From Flavobacteriales bacterium (GTDB lineage: Bacteria; Bacteroidota; Bacteroidia; Flavobacteriales_F; PHOS-HE28), in contig JAHBUK010000002.1 in assembly GCA_019638115.1 (NCBI GenBank), positions 5,867-69,866 of the forward strand: a stretch of 64,000 nucleotides of DNA, given 5' to 3'. The notes under the pieces are model-generated. The model worked only from the letters and a program-made list of their open reading frames with translations. It had not been told where the DNA came from and made no database searches. Made by a program: the position numbers and the translations under genes. This document shows positions 3,894 through 38,640 of this stretch, piece after piece. Position 1 is the stretch's first letter. Each line of letters begins with the position of its first letter.

Positions 3894-3906
3894 AGACTTG
3901 CACATC

Positions 3907-5322
3907 ATGCTTATCGGCCGGGAAGAGGAGCGCGACATTCTCCTGGATGCCTTGTCATCCGGGCATTCCGAGCTGATCGCCATCTATGGAAGACGGCGCA
4001 TCGGCAAGACTTACCTGATCCGCGAAGTGTATGCCGGCAAGGTGGACTTCGAGTTCTCGGGCATGCACCGGGGCACGCTCCGGCAGCAGCTCAAGAACTT
4101 CCACCTGGTGCTGCCCGCACGGCTGCGCAAGGGTGGCCCGCCCACCGACTGGCTGGATGCCTTCGCGCTCCTGGGGCGCTACATCGACGGACTTCGAAGC
4201 AAGCGGAAGAAGGTGCTCTTCATCGATGAGTTCCCATGGCTGGACACTCACCGGAGCGGTTTCCTGGCCGCCTTCAGCCACTTCTGGAACGGCTACTGCA
4301 GCAAGCGGAAGGACATCGTGGTGGTGATCTGCGGGTCGGCGGCCAGCTACATGGTGCAGCGCGTGGTGAACAACAAGGGCGGACTGCACAACCGGCTTAC
4401 ACGGCGGATCCGACTGGCACCCTTCAACCTGCGCGAGACGGAGCAAATGCTGCAACACAGGAAGGTGCGGTTCACACGCTACGATATCATACATCTGTAC
4501 ATGGCGCTCGGCGGAGTGCCCTACTATCTGCAACTGCTGAAACGGGGCGAAAGCATGGCCCAGGCCGTCGACCGGCTGTGCTTCCAGCCGCAGGGCTTCC
4601 TGCGTGGAGAGTTCCACAACGTGTTCGCCTCGCTGTTCGACCATGCCGGCAACCACGAGGCCATCGTACGTGCATTGGCCGGTGTGCGCAAGGGCCTCAC
4701 ACGCACCGCCATCCTGCGCAAGAGCAAGGTGTCGTCTGGTGGCACCCTCACCAAGACGCTCAGTGAACTGGAGGAGTCGGGCTTCATAGAGAAGTATGTG
4801 CCCTACGATGCGAAGAAGGACCCGTTGTACCGCATAACGGATGAGTACACGCAGTTCTACCTGCGCCATGTGGAGGGCGGCAAACCGGTAAGGCGCGCCT
4901 ACTGGGCAAAGGAGATGGGTACACCAGCTTATCGGGCTTGGAGCGGATTCACCTTCGAGACCATCTGCATGAAGCATGTGGAGCAGATCAAGGCGGCGCT
5001 GGGCATCCAGGGTGTGCGCTCCACGGAGGGTAGTTGGATCGGCAAGGGCGATGAAAGCGGTGCACAGGTGGATCTGCTCATAGACCGCGACGACAACGTG
5101 ATCAACCTCTGTGAGATGAAGTTCGCGAACGGGCCCTTCACCATCGACAAGAAGTATGCGAAGGACCTGATGGCCAAGAGCGAGGCATTCCGTTCATCCA
5201 CGCGTTCGAGGAAGAGCATCTTCATCACTTTCGTAACCACCCATGGTGTGGCTCAGAACGCGTACAGCAGCCAGTTGGTGCAGAACGATGTGCGCATGGA
5301 GGCTCTTTTCGAGGAGTATTAA
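3907..5322 (+). CDS. AAA family ATPase (Arch_ATPase/ATPase_2 + DUF234-type ATP-binding protein)
   Basis: It has Walker A GRRRIGKT and Walker B VLFIDEF. The overall architecture matches the widespread 'ATP-binding protein' PF01637+PF03008 family. A TTG start at 3898 is an alternative. Confidence 0.8.
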   Translation: MLIGREEERDILLDALSSGHSELIAIYGRRRIGKTYLIREVYAGKVDFEFSGMHRGTLRQQLKNFHLVLPARLRKGGPPTDWLDAFALLGRYIDGLRSKRKKVLFIDEFPWLDTHRSGFLAAFSHFWNGYCSKRKDIVVVICGSAASYMVQRVVNNKGGLHNRLTRRIRLAPFNLRETEQMLQHRKVRFTRYDIIHLYMALGGVPYYLQLLKRGESMAQAVDRLCFQPQGFLRGEFHNVFASLFDHAGNHEAIVRALAGVRKGLTRTAILRKSKVSSGGTLTKTLSELEESGFIEKYVPYDAKKDPLYRITDEYTQFYLRHVEGGKPVRRAYWAKEMGTPAYRAWSGFTFETICMKHVEQIKAALGIQGVRSTEGSWIGKGDESGAQVDLLIDRDDNVINLCEMKFANGPFTIDKKYAKDLMAKSEAFRSSTRSRKSIFITFVTTHGVAQNAYSSQLVQNDVRMEALFEEY

Positions 5323-5368
5323 CCGCAGCCAAATGTGGCATTCAAGAGGCACATTTGGCTGCGGTTAA
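5321..5368. repeat. hairpin repeat copy 3, overlapping ATPase stop codon; lies between convergent genes
   Basis: aaccgcagccaaatgtggcattcaagaggcacatttggctgcggtt has the same stem family. It likely acts as a bidirectional terminator. Confidence 0.7.
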
Positions 5369-5410
5369 TTGGAATGCCATGCGGCACGAGGATTGGTAAA
5401 ATGCGTTTCC

Positions 5411-8181: not shown

Positions 8182-8623
8182 GGCGGCGAAGATCGGCACA
8201 AGGTGCCGATCGTAGGGGCGGACGATCGTCCGCCCGCCGCCATACACCAGAAAGACGATCGTTCGCCCGCCGCAGTGCGCAGGACCAAGCCGTAACACCA
8301 CATTCAGCAGCAAGATGTAAGCACGAACGTGGGCCCCGCGCCCGGGATGGAAGCGGCGGCTGGCCGTAGGACGGGCCATGGCAGGGCGTGGAGCGAGGAG
8401 GCCCCGACGGTAGGAGGGGACCCCGGAGCCCCGCCATGCCAGGACCGGACAAGGACACCACAGCGGACAGCCCGATAAGGCGCCCCGAGCAACATCCACA
8501 ACCCGGTGCTGGTATCTGTGCTGTACCAAGCGAGTTGCAGATGTAACGCAGATACCTTTGCCGCACCATTCGGATACCGAAGATCATTTTCTGATCTTCT
8601 GATCGTCCGATCATCTGATCGAC

Positions 8624-10675
8624 ATGTCCCTCGAAGCCACCGAAAAACGCCAGCTCACCTACGAGCGCGGCAACCACAGCGACGCTTTCCTCATCAGCAC
8701 CTACGAGAAGCTGGTGTACCCGCGCATCATCGAAGAGAAGATGCTGAGCCTGCTGCGGCAGGGCAAGATCAGCAAGTGGTTCAGCGGCATCGGGCAGGAG
8801 GCCATCGCCGTGGGCGCCACCATGGCCCTGCAGGACGACGAGTACATCCTGCCCATGCACCGCAATCTGGGCGTATTCACCACGCGGGGCATGCCTTTCC
8901 GCAAGCTGTTCGCGCAGTGGCAGGGCAAGGCCACGGGCTACAGCAAGGGCCGCGAGCGAAGCTTCCACTTCGGCAGCCAGGAGCACAAGGTGGTGGGCAT
9001 GATCAGCCACCTTGGGCCGCAGATGGGCATCGCCGATGGCATCGCGCTGGCCCACAAGCTTAAGAAGGAGAACCGCTGCACCATCGTCTTCACCGGCGAT
9101 GGCGCCACGAGCGAGGGCGATTTCCACGAGAGCGTGAACGTGGCGGCGGTGTGGGACCTGCCCGTGCTGTTCATCATTGAGAACAACGGCTACGGACTGA
9201 GCACGCCCAGCAGCGAGCAGTTCCGCATGAAGCAGTTCACCGACAAGGCCATCGGCTATGGCATCGAAACGGTACAACTGGCGGGCAACAACATCTTGGA
9301 GGTGTACGACGCCCTGGCGTGGTGGGCCAACAGCGTGCGCGAGAACCCGCGTCCGGTGCTGATCGAATGCATGACCTTCCGCATGCGCGGTCACGAAGAG
9401 GCCAGCGGCACCAAGTACGTTCCCAAAGAGCTGTTCGAGGAGTGGGGCAGGAAGGATCCCGTGGCCAACTACGAGAATTGGCTGGTGGCGACGGGTGTGC
9501 TGACCATTGCCCAGAAGGACGAGATCCGTGCGCGGCTGAAGGACGGCATCGAAGCCGATCTGAAGGTGGCGTTCGAGGAGCCGGAACCGGTGCCGGTGGA
9601 AACCGCTGAGGTTGGGGACGTGTATGCAAATTCCGCCACTGGCCTATTGCCGCTGGCTACTGGCCCCTTGGAGGATCGGGCCAGTAGCCAGCAGCCAATA
9701 GCCATTGGCGAGTCCCGCGAGATCAGAATGATCGACGCCATCCAGGAAGGCATGCGTCAAAGCATGGAACGCCACCCGGAATTGGTGCTGATGGGCCAGG
9801 ACATCGCCGAGTACGGCGGGGCCTTCAAGATCACGGACGGTTTCGTGGAGAAGTTCGGCAAGGACCGGGTGCGCAATACGCCGCTGTGCGAGAGCGCCAT
9901 CCTGGGTGCGGCGCTGGGCCTCAGCATCAAGGGCATGAAGGCCATGATGGAGATGCAGTTCGCCGATTTCGTGAGCGAGGGTATGACCCAGATCTGCAAC
10001 AACCTGGCGAAGATCCATTACCGCTGGGGGCAGCACGCCGATGTGGTGGTGCGCATGCCCACTGGCGCCGGAGTGGGGGCGGGGCCCTTCCACAGCCAGA
10101 GCAACGAGATGTGGTTCGTGAAGACGCCCGGCCTGAAGGTGGTGTACCCCAGCAACCCCTACGACGCCAAGGGCCTGCTGATGACCGCCTTCGACGACCC
10201 GAACCCGGTGATGTTCTTCGAGCACAAAGCGATGTACCGCAGTATCAGCGGACCGGTGCCTGAGCAGCCGTACAGCATACCCTTCGGCAAGGCGCGGGTG
10301 GTGCGCGAGGGCAGCGACCTGAGCATCATCACATACGGAATGGGTGTGCATTGGGCGACGGCCGTGCAGGAGGAGACGGGCATCAGCATGGACATCATCG
10401 ACCTGCGTACGCTCGTACCCTTGGACGTGGAGACCATCCTCGCCAGCGTGAAGAAGACCGGTAAGGTGCTGCTGCTGCACGAGGACACACTGACCGCCGG
10501 TTTCGGTGGCGAGCTGGCGGCCATCATCGCAGAGCAGGCCTTCGAGTACCTGGATGCCCCGATCATGCGTGTGGCCAGCTGGGATACGCCGGTGCCCTTC
10601 GCGGTGCCGTTGGAGCAGGGTTTCCTGCCGAAGGGACGGTTGAGGGAGGCGGTGGAACGGTTGGCGGGGTATTAG
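8624..10675 (+). CDS. fused alpha/beta E1 component of a 2-oxoacid (pyruvate/branched-chain) dehydrogenase, TPP-dependent
   Basis: The N-terminal half is E1-alpha-like (TPP motif region GDGATSEGDFHESVN). The C-terminal half is E1-beta-like (LVLMGQDIAEYGGAFKIT..., FEHKAMYR). This fusion is common in Bacteroidota. Confidence 0.85.
   Translation: MSLEATEKRQLTYERGNHSDAFLISTYEKLVYPRIIEEKMLSLLRQGKISKWFSGIGQEAIAVGATMALQDDEYILPMHRNLGVFTTRGMPFRKLFAQWQGKATGYSKGRERSFHFGSQEHKVVGMISHLGPQMGIADGIALAHKLKKENRCTIVFTGDGATSEGDFHESVNVAAVWDLPVLFIIENNGYGLSTPSSEQFRMKQFTDKAIGYGIETVQLAGNNILEVYDALAWWANSVRENPRPVLIECMTFRMRGHEEASGTKYVPKELFEEWGRKDPVANYENWLVATGVLTIAQKDEIRARLKDGIEADLKVAFEEPEPVPVETAEVGDVYANSATGLLPLATGPLEDRASSQQPIAIGESREIRMIDAIQEGMRQSMERHPELVLMGQDIAEYGGAFKITDGFVEKFGKDRVRNTPLCESAILGAALGLSIKGMKAMMEMQFADFVSEGMTQICNNLAKIHYRWGQHADVVVRMPTGAGVGAGPFHSQSNEMWFVKTPGLKVVYPSNPYDAKGLLMTAFDDPNPVMFFEHKAMYRSISGPVPEQPYSIPFGKARVVREGSDLSIITYGMGVHWATAVQEETGISMDIIDLRTLVPLDVETILASVKKTGKVLLLHEDTLTAGFGGELAAIIAEQAFEYLDAPIMRVASWDTPVPFAVPLEQGFLPKGRLREAVERLAGY
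9635..9708. repeat. imperfect ~30-bp inverted repeat (hairpin) located in-frame in the E1 alpha-beta linker
   Basis: ccactggcctattgccgctggctactggcc ... ggccagtagccagcagccaatagccattgg encodes the linker TGLLPLATGPLEDRASSQQPIAIG. Confidence 0.65.
10601..10675. repeat. direct repeat copy 1 (native 3' end of E1 gene)
   Basis: The 75 bp gcggtgccgttggagcagggtttcctgccgaagggacggttgagggaggcggtggaacggttggcggggtattag is repeated about 90% identical at 11225-11299. Confidence 0.8.
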
Positions 10676-17665: not shown

Positions 17666-17710
17666 GGGTGCGAAGGTGGGGAAAGGGGCGAGGGGCGGAA
17701 TGGGCATAAA

Positions 17711-17882
17711 TGAAGAATGAAAAATGTAGAAGGAAAAATGATGAATGAAAGATGCCGGGACCAAGGTGGTGAGCTGAACGGGTCGGTGGATGGATGTCAG
17801 ACTTGGCTTGCGATGGACGGCGCCAGCTTCGCGGGTAGCAGTAGTCACAGTTCTACATTTTTCATTCTACATTTTTCATTGC
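17711..17882. repeat. composite palindromic element (gaatgaaaaatgtagaa arms / ttctacatttttcattc x2 inverted, ~95-bp GC-rich core)
   Basis: It was seen directly between ridA and surE. It has the same tandem-arm/core/inverted-arm architecture as the GTGGCGA elements. Confidence 0.65.
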
Positions 17883-17894
17883 AAGACACGCTCG

Positions 17895-18992: not shown

Positions 18993-20219
18993 ATGGGCAA
19001 GCGCATCTACATGATAGCCGGTGAAGCCAGTGGCGACCTCCACGGGGGGAACCTGGTGCGCGAGCTAGTGAAGATGAGTGGCGAGTGGCGAGTGGCGAGT
19101 GAAATGCCCCTTCCAAGGGATGCTGATCCCGGGGCATTACACTCGCCACTCGCCACTCATCACTCGCCACTCATTACTCCTCACGCGCCACTCCGCATCC
19201 GAGCCTGGGGGGGCGATCGCATGGCCGCTGCCGGCGCCGAAGTGGTGAAGCATTACCGCGAGCTGGCCTTCATGGGCTTCACGCAGGTGATCATGAACCT
19301 GCGCACCATCCTCCGCAACATCGAGCAGTGCAAGGAGGACATCGAAGCCTTCAAGCCCGATGCGCTGGTGCTGATCGACTACCCCGGCTTCAACCTGCGC
19401 ATCGCCGAATGGGCGCACGCCAAGGGCATCCCCGTGCACTACTACATCAGTCCGCAGGTGTGGGCCTGGAAGAAGGGTAGGGTGCACACCATCAAAAAAG
19501 TTGTGGACCACATGTACGTGGTGTTGCCCTTCGAGCAGGCCTGGTATGCGCAGTACGGCATGGCGGTGGACTTCGTTGGGCACCCGCTGCTGGATGCGAT
19601 CGAGCACGAAGGCAAGACCCCGCTCCAGCCCCTTCCCGGCGATGATGGCCGTCCGGTGGTGGCCCTGCTGCCCGGCAGCCGTAGGCAGGAGATCGCGCGC
19701 ATGATGAAGCTGATGCGTGCCACCGCGCGCCATTTCCCGGACCACCGCTTCGTGCTGGCCGCCGCGCCCTCCATACCGGACGAGGTCTACGCAGCCCAGC
19801 CCGGCGATCCGCCCGTTACCGTGGTGAAGGGCCGCACCTACGACGTGTTGCGCCACGCCCGCGCCGCGCTGGTCACCAGCGGCACCGCCACCTTGGAGAC
19901 GGCGCTCTTCGGGGTGCCTGAGGTGGTGTGCTACAGCGGCAGCGCCATAAACGTGTGGCTGGCCCGCCGTCTGGTGAAGGTGAAGTACATCAGCCTGGTG
20001 AACCTGATCATGGACCGCGAGGTGGTACGCGAACTGATACAGAGCGAGCTCACCGAGCAGAGCCTGCGTACCGAACTCGCCGCATTGCTGGCGGATGGTC
20101 CCAGGCGCAACACCATGCTCGCCGACCTGGCGGAATTGGGGCGCGTGTTGGGCGGCCCCGGAGCTTCGCGCAAGGTTGCATCGGGCGTGTGGAAAAGTCT
20201 GTTCAGCGCTTCACGCTGA
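18993..20219 (+). CDS. lpxB: lipid-A-disaccharide synthase LpxB carrying a ~37-codon in-frame repeat-element insertion
   Basis: It has the MGKRIYMIAGEASGDLHGGNLV N-terminus and the ...GGDRMAAAGAEVV...ISPQVWAWKKGRV LpxB motifs. Residues WRVASEMPLPRDADPGALHSPLATHHSPLITPHAP are encoded by the palindromic element. Confidence 0.85.
   Translation: MGKRIYMIAGEASGDLHGGNLVRELVKMSGEWRVASEMPLPRDADPGALHSPLATHHSPLITPHAPLRIRAWGGDRMAAAGAEVVKHYRELAFMGFTQVIMNLRTILRNIEQCKEDIEAFKPDALVLIDYPGFNLRIAEWAHAKGIPVHYYISPQVWAWKKGRVHTIKKVVDHMYVVLPFEQAWYAQYGMAVDFVGHPLLDAIEHEGKTPLQPLPGDDGRPVVALLPGSRRQEIARMMKLMRATARHFPDHRFVLAAAPSIPDEVYAAQPGDPPVTVVKGRTYDVLRHARAALVTSGTATLETALFGVPEVVCYSGSAINVWLARRLVKVKYISLVNLIMDREVVRELIQSELTEQSLRTELAALLADGPRRNTMLADLAELGRVLGGPGASRKVASGVWKSLFSASR
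19075..19185. repeat. composite palindromic element (GTGGCGA heptamer family) inserted in-frame inside lpxB
   Basis: gagtggcgagtggcgagtggcgagtg-aaatgccccttccaagggatgctgatcccggggcatt-acactcgccactcgccactcatcactcgccactc is 111 bp, a multiple of 3. Confidence 0.8.
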
Positions 20220-28902: not shown

Positions 28903-30822
28903 TTACCCATTCATCGACACCAAAAACTCCTCATTGCTCTTCGTCCCTTCCATGTGCTTCTTCACGAAATCCATGGCTTCCACGCTGTTCATGTCGGCCA
29001 AGTGCTTGCGCAGGATCCAGGTGCGTTGCAGCACGTCCTTGTGGTGCAGGAGGTCGTCGCGACGGGTACCGCTGCTGAGGATGTCGATCGCAGGGAACAC
29101 ACGGCGGTTGCTGATCTTGCGATCGAGCTGCAGTTCCATGTTGCCGGTGCCTTTGAATTCCTCGAAGATCACTTCGTCCATCTTGCTGCCGGTATCGATC
29201 AGCGCGGTGGCGAGGATCGTGAGGCTGCCGCCGTTCTCGATCTTGCGGGCCGCACCGAAGAAGCGCTTGGGCTTCTGCAGCGCATTGGCGTCCACACCAC
29301 CGCTGAGGATCTTGCCGCTGGCAGGCTGCACGGTGTTGTAGGCGCGGGCCAGTCGGGTGATGGAGTCGAGCAGGATCACCACATCGTGACCGCATTCCAC
29401 CATGGCCTTGGCCTTCTCCAGCACCAGGCCGGCAACTTGCACGTGGCGCGTTGCGGGCTCATCGAAAGTGCTTGCGATCACTTCCGCCTTCACGTTGCGC
29501 GCCATCTCGGTCACCTCCTCCGGACGCTCATCGATCAACAGCACGATGAGGTATACCTCCGGGTGGTTCTTGGCGATCGCGTTGGCCACGTCCTGCAGCA
29601 ACACGGTCTTACCGGTCTTGGGCTGCGCCACGATCAGGCCGCGTTGTCCTTTGCCGATGGGGGCGAAGAGGTCCAGCACGCGCATGCTGAGGTTGGCGCC
29701 CTGCTCCGCGAGGTTGAACTTCTCGTCGGGGAAGAGCGGCGTAAGGAACTTGAAGGGCACACGATCACGCACCCACTCAGGGTCGCGACCGTTGATGCTT
29801 TCCACCTTCACCAGCGGGAAGAACTTGTCGCCTTCGCGCGGCGGACGGACATAGCCGTGCACGGTATCGCCGAGCTTCAGGCCGTACTGCTTGATCTGCT
29901 GCTGGCTCACGTACACATCGTCGGGTGAGGCCAGGTAGTTGTAATCGCTGCTGCGCAGGAAACCGTATCCCTCGGGCATCACCTCCAGCACGCCGTCGGT
30001 CTCCACGAAGGCCTCGAAGTTGATCTGCTCGCGCTGCGGTTGGCGCTCTTGGCGTTCGTTGCGCTGCTGGTCGCGATCATGGCGCCCCTGCTGGTCGTTG
30101 CGGTTCTGCTCGCCGCGCTGCTGTTCCGGGCGTTGCTGTTCGCCGCGCTGTTGGTCGCCGCGGTTCTGCTCGCCACGTTGCTGTTCGTTGCGCGGGCGCT
30201 CGCCTTGTTGTTGCTGATCACGCTGCGGGCGTTCGGGACGGCGTTGGTCGCGGCGGTCGCGGTCGTCGTTGCGCGCGCCGCCTGCCTCGGGTTGTGCAGG
30301 TCGGTCCCCGCGCTGTTCGCGGCGGTCCTGGCGTTGCTCGGGCTGGCGTCGTTCGTTGCGTTGGTCTCGGTCGCGACGCTCGCGCACCGGGGGCGCTTCT
30401 GGTGCATCGGAAGCTTGCGGCAGCTCAGCGGGTGCGGCCTCTTCCTTCACGCTTGAAGCTGGGCGCTCGTCCTCCTCCTCGTCATCGTCGTCATCCTCAT
30501 CATCGTCATCATCATCATCATCGTCGTCATCATCGTCATCCTCATCGGCATTGCTGAAGAGTCCTTCATCCAGGGTGGCGGGTTCGGGATCCTCCTCCGG
30601 CACCACCTCGTCGGCCGTGGCCATTTCGGCTATTGCTTGCTCATCACCCACGAATGTGGGGCCGATCGGTTTTTCGCGGGCCTGGTGCTTCTCCTGTTCT
30701 TCCAGGATCTTGGCGATGAGGTCCTGCTTCTTGAGCGTTTCGGCCTTCTTCAGGTTGAGCGCCTTGGCGATCTCCTTCAGTTCGGCGAGCTTCATGGCGC
30801 TCAATTTCGACTGGTCGTACAT
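28903..30822 (-). CDS. rho: transcription termination factor Rho with large disordered N-terminal insertion
   Basis: It has the N-terminus [24 protein letters not shown]. It has a poly-D/E tract followed by an RQ-rich repeat region. The C-terminal RecA-like ATPase has [15 protein letters not shown]. Confidence 0.9.
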
Positions 30823-35849: not shown

Positions 35850-36097
35850 GCGTTGCGGTCCCGAAAGTAGCGCCGGGCAACGCGTGCTGTCGAGCCATGG
35901 GGGATGGAACAGCGGATGCGGGGGCTGAAGCGTAGGAGTCAGGGGATGAAGCGGAGGATATGTTCCCGGTGAGGATGCCGCGCGTTCCAACAGGCCTTTC
36001 CGGCGCTTCAGCAGGGAGGTCCTTCGCTCCACGGGAAAGGCATGGACATAGGGTGGAAGGTCCGGCCACTTTCGCCACCGGAACAAACCCCGAAGCC

Positions 36098-38488
36098 ATG
36101 CGCCCACAGAAACTCCTCCCCATGATCGCCCTGCTGTTGCCGGGCCTGTTGCACGCCCAGAACCAGGTGGTGAAGGGCACCGTGAAGGACGCCGACACCC
36201 AGATGCCCCTGATAGGCGTGAACATCGTACTGCTGGAAAGCGCCCCCTTTCTCGGTACCACCACTGACCTCGATGGCCGCTTCCGCATGGAAGGTGTGCC
36301 CGTGGGGCGCCAGCAATTGCAGGTCACGTCCATCGGCTACAAGAGCACCGTGATCCCCAACGTGCTGGTGACCGCCGGCAAGGAAGTGGTGCTGGAGATC
36401 GGCCTCACCGCATCCGTGGAGAGCCTGCAGGAAGTGGTGATCACCGGCGAGCGCAGCAAGGACCGGCCCGCCAACGACCTGGCCAAGGTGAGCGCCCGCA
36501 CCTTCAGCCTGGAGGAGGTGACACGCTACAGCGGTGGCCGCAACGATGTGGCGCGCCTGGCCACCAACTTCGCCGGGGTGAGCGCCGCCAACGATGCGCG
36601 CAACGACATTGTCGTACGCGGCAACTCGCCCACCGGCCTGCTCTGGCGTATCGAGGGATTACCCATCGGCACCACCAACCACTTCGGTACGCTGGGCACC
36701 ACCGGTGGTCCGGTGAGCGCGCTCAACACCAACCTGCTCCGCACGAGCGATTTCCTCAGCGGCGCCTTTCCGGCGGAATACGGCAACGTGAACGCGGCCG
36801 TGTTCGATGTGAAATTCCGCAACGGCAATCCGGACAAGCACGAGTTCACCGCGCAGATGGCGGCCTTCAGCGGCGCGGAGTTGATGGCCGAGGGGCCGCT
36901 GAGCCGCAAGAACCAGTCGTCGTACCTGGTGAGCTACCGCTATGGCATCGCCGGTGCCGCCGCCACGGGAACCAGCGCCGTGCCCTACTTCCAGGACCTT
37001 GCCTTCAAGCTCAACTTCGGGCAAAGCAAGCTGGGGCGTTTCGAGCTCTTCGGCATGGGCGGCCGCAGCAGCATCGACTTCCTCGGGGCCGAGATCGACA
37101 GCACCGACCTTTTCGCCGATCCCACAGTGGACACCTACTTCCGCTCCGACGTGGCGCTCATCGGACTCTCGCACTTCCTGCAGCTCGATGACAAAAGCTA
37201 CCTGAAGACCACCATCGGCAGCACCTACCTCGGCACCGACTTCACGCAGGACAACATCCTCGGCGGTGCCAGCGACCAGGCCGCACGCCGCTACCAGGCC
37301 ACCACCGCGCTGGACCGCGAACAACGCTACACCGTGAGCAGCCAATACAACCGCAAGTTCTCGCCGCGTTTCAGCCTGCGTGCCGGCATCCTCAACGAGT
37401 TGTACGACCTCGACATCGATTGGAAGGACCGCGACCGCCGTGCCGGCATCCCCGACCTGGATGGCGACAGCATCCCCGACTTCTTCGTGCAGGTGCGCGA
37501 TGTACAGGGCACGATCAACCTCTTCCAAGCCTATGCGCAGGGCGAGTACAAGTTCACGGACGAACTCAGCTTCACCGCCGGTGTACATGGCCAGCACCTC
37601 GACCTCAACAACGATGTGATGCTCGCCCCGCGCGCCGCGCTCGCCTGGCAGTTCCGCCCGCGCCAACGCCTTTCGCTCGCCTACGGTCTGCATGGCCAGA
37701 TGGCCCCCTTGCCGGTGCTGCTCTACGTGGATCCCACCACCGGCGCGAACAACCGCGACCTGAAGTTCCAGAAGGCCCACCACGTGGTGCTCGCCTATGA
37801 TCATCGCTTCGAGGGCGACTGGCGCGTGAAGACCGAAGCCTATCACCAGTGGCTCTACGACGTGGGCATCGAGCGCACGCCCAGCAGTTACTCCGTGCTG
37901 AACGAGGGAGCGGACTTCATCTTCACCGAGCGAGCCGGACTGGTGAGCGATGGCACGGGCCGCAACTACGGCGTGGAACTCACCATCGAGAAGTTCCTGA
38001 GCCGCGGCTACTATGCGCTGGCCACCGCATCGGTCTTCGATTCGCGCTACACCGGCAGTGACGGCATCGAGCGCAACACCGGCTTCGCCAACCGCTACGT
38101 GCTGAACACCCTATTGGGCAAGGAGTGGGGCATCGGCAAGGACAAGCGCAACGCCCTCACCTTCGACACGCGCCTCACCACCAGCGGCGGTCGGCCCTTC
38201 AGCCCCATCGACCTGGAAGCCACCCGCGAAAACCTGGGTCGCGAGGTGTACGTGGACAGCGAGGCCTTCAGCAAACGCTACGATGCCTACCTGCGCCTTG
38301 ATGTGAAGTTCGGCATGCGCCTCAACGGCAAGGCCGGCAAGGTGAGCCACCAATTCTTCGTGGACCTGCAGAACATCACCGACCGTGAGAACATTTTCGT
38401 GGAGCGCTACAACCGCGTCACCGACCGCGTGGGCCCGGTGTACCAGAACGGGTTCTTCCCGGATTTTATGTACCGCGTTCAGTTTTAG
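36098..38488 (+). CDS. TonB-dependent receptor with N-terminal carboxypeptidase-regulatory-like domain
   Basis: It has the signal MRPQKLLPMIALLLPGLLHAQ and a CarbopepD_reg-like region VKGTVKDADTQMPLIGVNI. It has a plug domain and the C-terminal beta-barrel terminus YRVQF. Confidence 0.85.
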   Translation: MRPQKLLPMIALLLPGLLHAQNQVVKGTVKDADTQMPLIGVNIVLLESAPFLGTTTDLDGRFRMEGVPVGRQQLQVTSIGYKSTVIPNVLVTAGKEVVLEIGLTASVESLQEVVITGERSKDRPANDLAKVSARTFSLEEVTRYSGGRNDVARLATNFAGVSAANDARNDIVVRGNSPTGLLWRIEGLPIGTTNHFGTLGTTGGPVSALNTNLLRTSDFLSGAFPAEYGNVNAAVFDVKFRNGNPDKHEFTAQMAAFSGAELMAEGPLSRKNQSSYLVSYRYGIAGAAATGTSAVPYFQDLAFKLNFGQSKLGRFELFGMGGRSSIDFLGAEIDSTDLFADPTVDTYFRSDVALIGLSHFLQLDDKSYLKTTIGSTYLGTDFTQDNILGGASDQAARRYQATTALDREQRYTVSSQYNRKFSPRFSLRAGILNELYDLDIDWKDRDRRAGIPDLDGDSIPDFFVQVRDVQGTINLFQAYAQGEYKFTDELSFTAGVHGQHLDLNNDVMLAPRAALAWQFRPRQRLSLAYGLHGQMAPLPVLLYVDPTTGANNRDLKFQKAHHVVLAYDHRFEGDWRVKTEAYHQWLYDVGIERTPSSYSVLNEGADFIFTERAGLVSDGTGRNYGVELTIEKFLSRGYYALATASVFDSRYTGSDGIERNTGFANRYVLNTLLGKEWGIGKDKRNALTFDTRLTTSGGRPFSPIDLEATRENLGREVYVDSEAFSKRYDAYLRLDVKFGMRLNGKAGKVSHQFFVDLQNITDRENIFVERYNRVTDRVGPVYQNGFFPDFMYRVQF

Positions 38489-38496
38489 TAATACAG

Positions 38497-38640
38497 GGTG
38501 AATGGGAGTTGGTGAATGGCGAATGGGAAGTGCCGTCCCGCGATCATCAACCTCGCAACCTGTGCGACATCGTAGGCATTTCCCATTCACCACCTCCCAT
38601 TCATCACCTCCCATTCACCAACTCCCATTCACCATTCGCC
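38497..38640. repeat. composite palindromic element (GAATGGGAG nonamer arms, inverted CTCCCATTC arms)
   Basis: gggtgaatgggagttggtgaatggcgaatgggaag...core...catttcccattcaccacctcccattcatcacctcccattcaccaactcccattcacc has the same architecture as the GTGGCGA family. Confidence 0.7.

Follow-up and report, generated by a model that had tools for sequence, protein, structure and literature searches.

The stretch of DNA analysed here, called the window in the following, comprises 64 kb (64,000 nucleotides, nt) of contig JAHBUK010000002.1 from a Flavobacteriales bacterium (assembly GCA_019638115.1, positions 5,867 to 69,866). It contains a gene for a fused 2-oxoacid dehydrogenase E1 alpha/beta protein, and a long inverted repeat lies in frame in this gene where the alpha and beta parts join. 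We describe the structure, the distribution and the probable origin of this repeat, which is named the E1 hairpin or E1 element. The relevant features are given in positions of the window:

8624 to 10675, plus strand: host gene, fused 2-oxoacid dehydrogenase E1 alpha/beta, 683 amino acids (aa), from the open reading frame (ORF), its translation, Pfam and matches to solved subunits
9628 to 9715, plus strand: full consensus helix of 36 pairs, from a comparison with the related loci L162 and L164; it fills nearly the entire variable linker (aa 336-364)
9634 to 9666, plus strand: left arm, tandem heptamers GCCACTG GCCTATT GCCGCTG GCTACTG GCCC, including one half of the perfect apical stem (9652-9666), from the sequence, the inverted-repeat search and the fold
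9667 to 9677, plus strand: apical loop CTTGGAGGATC, 11 nt, encoding part of P-L-E-D, from the sequence and the fold
9678 to 9710, plus strand: right arm, GGGC followed by the heptamers CAGTAGC CAGCAGC CAATAGC CATTGGC, including the other half of the perfect apical stem (9678-9692), from the sequence, the fold and Tandem Repeats Finder (TRF)

Host gene and domain junction

In the E1 ORF, Pfam assigns E1_dh to aa 31-323, Transket_pyr to aa 366-539 and Transketolase_C to aa 555-669. Homology to solved alpha subunits runs out at aa 334-337 and homology to solved beta subunits starts at aa 365-368. The hairpin encodes aa 338-362, A-TGLLPLATGPLEDRASSQQPIAIG, in frame. It is thus located exactly at the alpha/beta junction, between both homology regions, as had been claimed in the first-pass annotation of the window. 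These boundaries were taken from Pfam and PDB homology instead of a predicted structure. A prediction from a 30-sequence alignment was poor (mean predicted local distance difference test score, pLDDT, 58.9), and scores under 50 were obtained for the beta domain as well, so that the low confidence at aa 319-370 is unusable as evidence of disorder. The identical E1 protein is found in an NCBI metagenome-assembled genome (MAG) with a Flavobacteriales annotation and also in a Logan assembly made independently, so the linker sequence is not an assembly artefact.

Another repeat lies directly ahead of the gene. At 8589-8620 an 8-nt unit is repeated four times in tandem (TTCTGATC TTCTGATC GTCCGATC ATCTGATC), ending 3 nt ahead of the E1 start codon. 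The array is downstream of a Bacteroidetes-type promoter motif, GATACCTTTGC, which is kept in all close relatives. A shorter array of similar kind is present only in the related locus L002 (...TCTGATCGACATG). Possibly, the array is a repeat expansion in the 5' untranslated region of E1.

Geometry and folding of the hairpin

The inverted repeat has 33-nt arms (9634-9666 and 9678-9710) that are 82% complementary and spaced by 11 nt. The repeat is therefore present where the first pass had placed it. The loop of 14 nt given there has to be shortened to 11 nt. The perfect apical stem, counted by hand, comprises 15 bp (9652-9666 and 9678-9692), and the apex of the hairpin reads GGCTACTGGCCC...GGGCCAGTAGCC. 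Folded as RNA, positions 9625-9720 reach -55.4 kcal/mol, compared with -33.7 +/- 3.4 kcal/mol in 200 dinucleotide shuffles (z-score -6.4; none of the 200 as good). Segments of the same length from the E1 gene have a mean of -32.3 kcal/mol and a best value of -43.1 kcal/mol. After correction for GC content, the fold ranks 4th among 4260 segments of 110 nt from the 64 kb.

Both arms are composed of tandem 7-nt units, a feature that the first pass had missed. In a common register the left arm reads GCCACTG GCCTATT GCCGCTG GCTACTG and the right arm GCCAGTA GCCAGCA GCCAATA GCCATTG. TRF reports a period of 7 at 9680-9704, and each arm holds 4 or 5 units. The whole element measures 77-88 nt. It is without stop codons only in the frame that is used and in one minus-strand frame. 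A design of such elements to be free of stop codons in all six frames is thereby ruled out. The observed pattern fits survival filtering insertions.

The E1 linker across Bacteroidota

For a comparison across 149 non-redundant Bacteroidota loci, we defined the linker by two conserved anchors, as the stretch that follows V333 and precedes I367. Linkers of at most 20 aa are found in 93 of the 149 loci, with a mode of 17-18 aa, and only 1 of these 93 folds at z < -3. Another 19 loci have linkers of 21-27 aa. The remaining 37 linkers have at least 28 aa; 15 of them fold at z < -3, and 7 nt is the best period in 26. In matched control segments from the same genes neither a strong fold nor a period of 7 was detected (0/149 for each). 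A fused gene whose linker is short and unstructured occurs in Cytophagales, Chitinophagales, Saprospiraceae and Flavobacteriales, and this distribution indicates that such a gene is the ancestral state.

The repeat units of expanded linkers vary by lineage (GGAGTTA, GTGAATC, GTTTCTC, GGTGAAT, AGTGAGT, GTGAGAC and others). The left-arm and right-arm consensus units match each other as reverse complements at 6-7 of 7 positions in at least eight lineages. Two-sided arrays that are not complementary were found in L154, L132 and L133. Two close relatives have direct heptamer arrays without an inverted arm, L004 (z +1.2, no better than shuffles) and L007 (weak, z -1.5), and the linkers of L006, L008 and L084 are without a significant hairpin. 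The E1 linker has thus been colonised repeatedly by heptamer-periodic hairpins in many Bacteroidota lineages.

Expansion of another kind was observed in Chitinophagaceae. The linkers of L018, L098 and L088 contain a 9-nt repeat encoding (FEK)n (...TQFEKFEKFEKFGEFEKFG...) rather than heptamers. This repeat stays in frame, its unit being a multiple of three nucleotides, and the linkers form no hairpin.

Turnover of the linker among close relatives

The 120 closest orthologues are 78-100% identical to the E1 protein. They retain ...GDVYA and ...(P)E(K/I)R.IDAIQE, and the sequence between these anchors is fully different. With the linker set aside, identity to the nearest relatives is 94-95% over the alpha half and 93-94% over the beta half. 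Their linkers are of the SQLSVV...TDNQQ type, of the TRSVDP...GRP type, or short, and none is of the window's type. The alignment with orthologues proposed in the first pass thus reveals a hypervariable linker that differs in the window's closest relatives. The window's linker type recurs only in P0004 and P0011 (89-90% identical). Their near-identical peptides are also encoded by palindromic DNA, so that the case named as refuting in the first-pass annotation, the same peptide from non-palindromic DNA, did not arise.

About 20 close alleles were compared as DNA. At least three close loci were added by a metagenome scan of E1 loci, and further close alleles were fetched singly. L001, the window's own sequence as found on a Logan contig, is 90-96% identical to L169 in the flanks and only 32-41% identical in the linker, which has thus been replaced as a whole. 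Compared with L162, which has the same linker type as the window, hairpin and flanks are equally diverged. Hence the allele shared by the two is old. A recombination tract around the hairpin was searched for between the window and L162 and not found. The alpha and beta halves were also compared in identity, since a breakpoint at the linker might show there, and in some cases they disagree by 4-7 points.

Linkers of the TRSVDP type are encoded by in-frame copies of a repeat that resembles the repetitive extragenic palindromic (REP) sequences. Its form is (G)GCAGCGTCGACCC-NNN-GGGTCGAC, also written GTCGACCC-NNN-GGGTCGAC. Ten copies are present in 248 kb of close-clade loci (L002 3161; L005 7032; L083 12094 and 12431; L164 5100, 5229 and 5602; L169 21105, 21284 and 21446), compared with none in 1.9 Mb of distant loci. 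The 64-kb window has no copy. Intergenic copies are found directly downstream of E1, and three copies adjoin a Y1_Tnp (PF01797) gene at 21662-21919 of L169. A further unit, ACAACTG, forms the right arm of the SQLSVV...TDNQQ hairpin in L169 and its relatives. It also occurs in intergenic DNA at L164 2886-2950, immediately upstream of the E1 promoter, and at L085 14064-14090. Hence the E1 linker has received dispersed palindromic repeats of at least two classes.

The 717-aa E1 orthologue P0102 has a tandem duplication in the linker that includes the conserved anchor (DVYAS-TRSVDPQGRPIPA-DVYATVGAS-TRSVDPQGRPIP). Here a REP-like insert and the flanking host sequence have been duplicated together.

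Related palindromes in the window

Five heptamer-array palindromes were found in the 64 kb, one of which is probable, and two of the five are in frame in genes. Besides the E1 element these are:

909 to 1065, no strand assigned: intergenic copy of the GAGTGGC family (GAGTGGC / GCCACTC units) between divergent genes
17700 to 17885, no strand assigned: probable further member, AT-rich arrays AATGAAG / TTCTACA and CATTTTT flanking a divergent intergenic region
19066 to 19200, plus strand: (GAGTGGC)n / (GCCACTC)n palindrome in frame in lpxB (gene at about 18996-20219), adding about 40 aa
38497 to 38637, no strand assigned: intergenic palindrome of GGTGAAT / ATTCACC units, 3' of the stop codon of ORF 35960-38488

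The elements at 909-1065 and 19066-19200 are copies of one family with a common apex (GAGTGAATGCCCC / GGGGCATTCACTC), and they form the two strongest local folds of the window. The GGTGAAT unit of 38497-38637 also builds the E1-linker hairpins of the Chitinophagales loci L102, L031 and L022. In lpxB the insert is near the N-terminus of the protein, where the Pfam LpxB match is broken after profile position 28. The corresponding loop of lpxB orthologues ranges from empty (proteins of 370-376 aa) to a repeat-derived insert of about 75 aa. In P0213 this loop carries tandem SGKSASGEGQV.SDAG and ANSPL repeats.

It had been supposed in the first pass that the E1 repeat could be an in-frame insertion like that in lpxB. 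This proposal is supported. The lpxB insert is real and the same phenomenon as the E1 hairpin. The E1 element has the same architecture, expanded E1 linkers are mostly heptamer-periodic, and one allele type is a dispersed REP-like repeat.

Three other repeats of the window are of different kinds. A perfect 20-bp inverted repeat with a 12-nt loop at 5318-5369 (ATTAACCGCAGCCAAATGTG ... CACATTTGGCTGCGGTTAAT) overlaps the TAA stop codon of ORF 3898-5322. Located between convergent ORFs, it forms the third strongest local fold of the window and is not heptameric; it looks like a bidirectional terminator or an mRNA-end hairpin. A coding-type array with periods of 15, 30 and 60 nt (CTGCTGTTCGCCGCG-like) is located at 30088-30204, and a (TCGTCA / TCA)n tract of about 85 nt at 30467-30551.

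Searches for known signals

At gathering thresholds Rfam has no match in the window. In the segment 9400-9950, at E <= 1, only sub-threshold look-alikes of miRNA hairpins were obtained, with 24 bits compared with a gathering score of 94. An intrinsic terminator was rejected, as 9300-10000 contains no terminator-like site and the stem is followed by GAGTCCCGCGAG with no T-run. A promoter scan at the hairpin found none. Upstream of the hairpin no canonical X_XXY_YYZ slippery site was seen, by eye only. A Y1 transposase was considered as mobiliser of the E1 element after the lead from L169 and was discarded, since it is linked only to the REP-like repeat.

Origin of the hairpin

We consider it probable that the hairpin is lineage-specific heptamer-palindrome repeat DNA, carried as an in-frame passenger in the interdomain linker. 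A palindrome with complementary 7-nt arrays would then sit in the only region of E1 alpha/beta that tolerates arbitrary sequence. It would belong to a class of heptamer palindromes scattered through the genome, mostly in intergenic DNA. The element may persist as a passenger because the frame used is free of stop codons and yields a flexible Gly/Pro/Ala/Leu/Ser peptide, and for the enzyme it would be selectively near-neutral. Its recurrence at the linker would presumably reflect survivorship rather than targeting, if insertions elsewhere in the gene are lethal. The complementarity of the arms is probably kept largely by DNA-level processes, namely slippage in the arrays and template switching in the quasi-palindrome. 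For heptamer repeats slippage was suggested by Mrazek et al. 2007, as quoted in PMC4679880. The element could have arrived by transposition in trans, or by local slippage plus template switching.

Several observations weigh against the passenger origin. A second copy of the unit GGCTACTGGCC / GCCAGTAGCCAG was found neither in the window, searched with up to 3 mismatches, nor in the 2.15 Mb of fetched loci. Matches to the arms, whose search had been suggested in the first pass, were confined to orthologous E1 linkers. Hence, dispersal of the exact E1 family is unsupported. No target-site duplication, no empty E1 site in a sister strain and no transposase was identified for the E1 element, and no Y1 transposase homologue is present in the window or in loci other than L169. 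A target-site duplication is not definable, because the close E1 relatives offer no precise empty site. Furthermore, the allele is shared with P0004 and P0011, which are not the closest genes, and this distribution would require allele replacement or recombination. Finally, the same-type comparison, which is restricted to three sequences (the window, L162 and L164), shows no difference in the 15-bp apical stem, while identity at the gene's third codon positions amounts to only 67-72%. Compensated changes occur in 5 of the 36 pairs, a level matched by 18 of 500 shuffles; three sequences give little power here, and according to the notes of the tool relatedness alone can let sequences outperform shuffles where no structure exists. 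The invariant stem and the compensated pairs are a hint of constraint on the structure beyond neutrality.

Such a constraint would be expected of a selected mRNA structure. The hairpin would slow ribosomes so that the alpha domain folds or binds thiamine pyrophosphate before the beta domain emerges, or it would stabilise the transcript, and it would be kept whatever its sequence. Hairpins unrelated in sequence indeed recur at the same site in many lineages. The stem is invariant despite a third-position divergence of 28-33%; the outer arms have diverged among the three relatives, yet 93.5% of cells are still paired; and the G-U pairs in the hairpin of L164 fit pairing at the RNA level better than at the DNA level. 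The apical loop differs by 1-3 substitutions among the three. The enzyme, however, needs no hairpin, because 93 of 149 loci have short unstructured linkers, and among the close relatives L004 and L007 have direct arrays only and L006, L008 and L084 lack a significant hairpin. Six sequences of type B contain many broken pairs and give a positive, that is penalising, covariation term, and the type-B hairpin is visibly decaying in some lineages. The same kind of palindrome in the lpxB loop and in intergenic DNA also points to the repeat and not to E1. We regard a selected mRNA structure as improbable. Of the idea in the first-pass annotation that the hairpin modulates translation, mild signs of constraint remain, set against hairpins that are absent, different or decaying in close relatives. 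Since the hint of constraint is weak, type-B alleles decay and several close relatives are free of hairpins, we attribute the hairpin to the inserted repeat and not to E1.

Formation in place, with no mobile element involved, is rather unlikely but fits part of the data. Slippage would expand a heptamer of the linker, and an intrastrand template switch would copy the array in inverted orientation. The lack of a second copy of the E1 unit agrees with this course. The direct arrays of L004 and L007 at the same site are possible intermediates, and the arrays of L154, L132 and L133 lie on both sides without being complementary. In addition, the palindrome occupies the whole variable linker, with no recognisable ancestral linker, and heptanucleotides are the commonest class of long simple sequence repeats in most prokaryotic genomes, with slippage as proposed cause (Mrazek 2007, as quoted in PMC4679880). 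Other members of the class, however, are dispersed: GAGTGGC at two loci with a common apex, GGTGAAT in the window and in Chitinophagales E1 linkers, ACAACTG at E1 and at intergenic sites, and likewise the REP-like repeat. Full replacement of an allele between flanks that are 90-96% identical also resembles insertion or recombination more than gradual slippage. The remaining proposal, put forward in the first pass, is a relic of gene fusion, i.e. what is left of a repeat or terminator that once lay in the spacer of unfused E1-alpha and E1-beta genes and that mediated or survived their fusion. The position of the palindrome exactly at the junction and the abundance of heptamer palindromes in the intergenic DNA of this genome would suit such a relic. 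However, in the four Bacteroidota groups sampled the modal state is a fused gene whose linker is unstructured and 17-18 aa long, so the fusion long predates the hairpin. Genes that are 93-95% identical have unrelated linkers, and neither a terminator-like T-run nor a promoter is present. A fusion relic is therefore extremely unlikely, and we abandon this proposal.

Beyond the passenger origin, a wider possibility is worth stating, although we give it a low probability. Heptamer palindromes might form a class of DNA, so far undescribed and spread through the phylum Bacteroidota, that propagates or renews itself. Their two arms would evolve in concert, remaining complementary while the unit sequence differs from lineage to lineage, and the palindromes would reoccupy the same permissive coding sites, namely the E1 linker and the lpxB loop. 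If so, either dedicated machinery would recognise or regenerate the arrays, or a strong mRNA hairpin would be selected between domains that fold co-translationally, and the E1 linker would be a natural reporter locus for the process. Already as it stands, the linker acts as a natural trap that records many independent or successive captures, with a turnover of alleles far exceeding that of the rest of the gene. It makes the origin and turnover of repeats, the concerted evolution of arms and the tolerance of linkers measurable. Such inserts also break Pfam and hidden Markov model alignments, of which lpxB is an example. They make proteins look more diverse than they are and can misdirect the annotation and phylogeny of genes that are conserved in all other respects.

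Comparison with known systems

Miniature inverted-repeat transposable elements have terminal inverted repeats, a target-site duplication and a cognate transposase elsewhere. The whole E1 element is an inverted repeat; close relatives offer no precise empty site by which a target-site duplication could be defined, and no transposase was identified. REP and REPIN elements, which are mobilised by REP-associated tyrosine (RAYT, Y1) transposases (PMC3116915 for REPINs), are short, GC-rich, hairpin-forming dispersed repeats, and in related genomes a REP-like repeat occurs beside Y1_Tnp as well as in the E1 linker. The E1 element differs in its heptamer arms, in the absence of a detected second copy and of a Y1 transposase in the 64 kb. 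Moreover, REPs are defined as extragenic, and in-frame coding copies do not belong to their usual description. An assignment to the REP/REPIN-RAYT system thus suits the GTCGACCC-NNN-GGGTCGAC repeat of related genomes and not the element of the window.

Cyanobacteria contain short tandemly repeated repetitive (STRR) sequences, which are heptanucleotide repeats. Arrays of the heptamer TAACTGA are described from Beggiatoaceae, Cyanobacteria and five Bacteroidetes, with one inverted set only, in BOGUAY; other heptamer arrays are reported from intergenic regions of Bacteroidetes, and 7-nt units are unexpected in coding DNA (PMC4679880). In E1 such units are tolerated in coding DNA because the total length of the insert keeps the frame. 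The E1 element shares with these arrays the tandem 7-nt units, documented by TRF for its right arm and by the prevalence of period 7 in expanded linkers. Common to both are also a mostly intergenic and sporadic occurrence, variable copy number and occasional location within ORFs. The published arrays are direct, whereas here facing complementary arrays form a long hairpin and recur in the linker of an enzyme. Our literature search found no description of paired complementary heptamer arrays that colonise coding linkers.

A length of about 150 bp, a conserved encoded peptide in each family and an occurrence known from Rickettsia characterise the Rickettsia palindromic elements (RPEs; Ogata et al. 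2000, 2002, reviewed in PMC10969869). Like the repeats described here, they are palindromic and occur both in intergenic DNA and in frame in unrelated housekeeping genes, at positions compatible with the fold (same source), which are here the E1 linker and the lpxB loop. The E1 element is a palindromic hairpin inserted in frame in a hypervariable linker where function permits it. Several copies of the same family were not found for the E1 unit in the window and the 2.15 Mb, and the sibling GAGTGGC family has two. The E1 element is shorter than RPEs (77-88 nt), consists of tandem 7-nt units that vary by locus and lineage, and comes from a high-GC Flavobacteriales MAG. By host, by length, by its heptamer-array arms and by the lack of an Rfam match at gathering thresholds in the window it stands apart from the RPEs, and a common sequence is not expected. 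In function, RPEs are the closest counterpart of the E1 element, which is not a member of them. In-frame "selfish" palindromes in housekeeping genes have so far come mainly from Rickettsia. Those described here extend them to a free-living, high-GC member of Flavobacteriales and across Bacteroidota, with a building principle that differs from the Rickettsia case, namely complementary 7-nt arrays.

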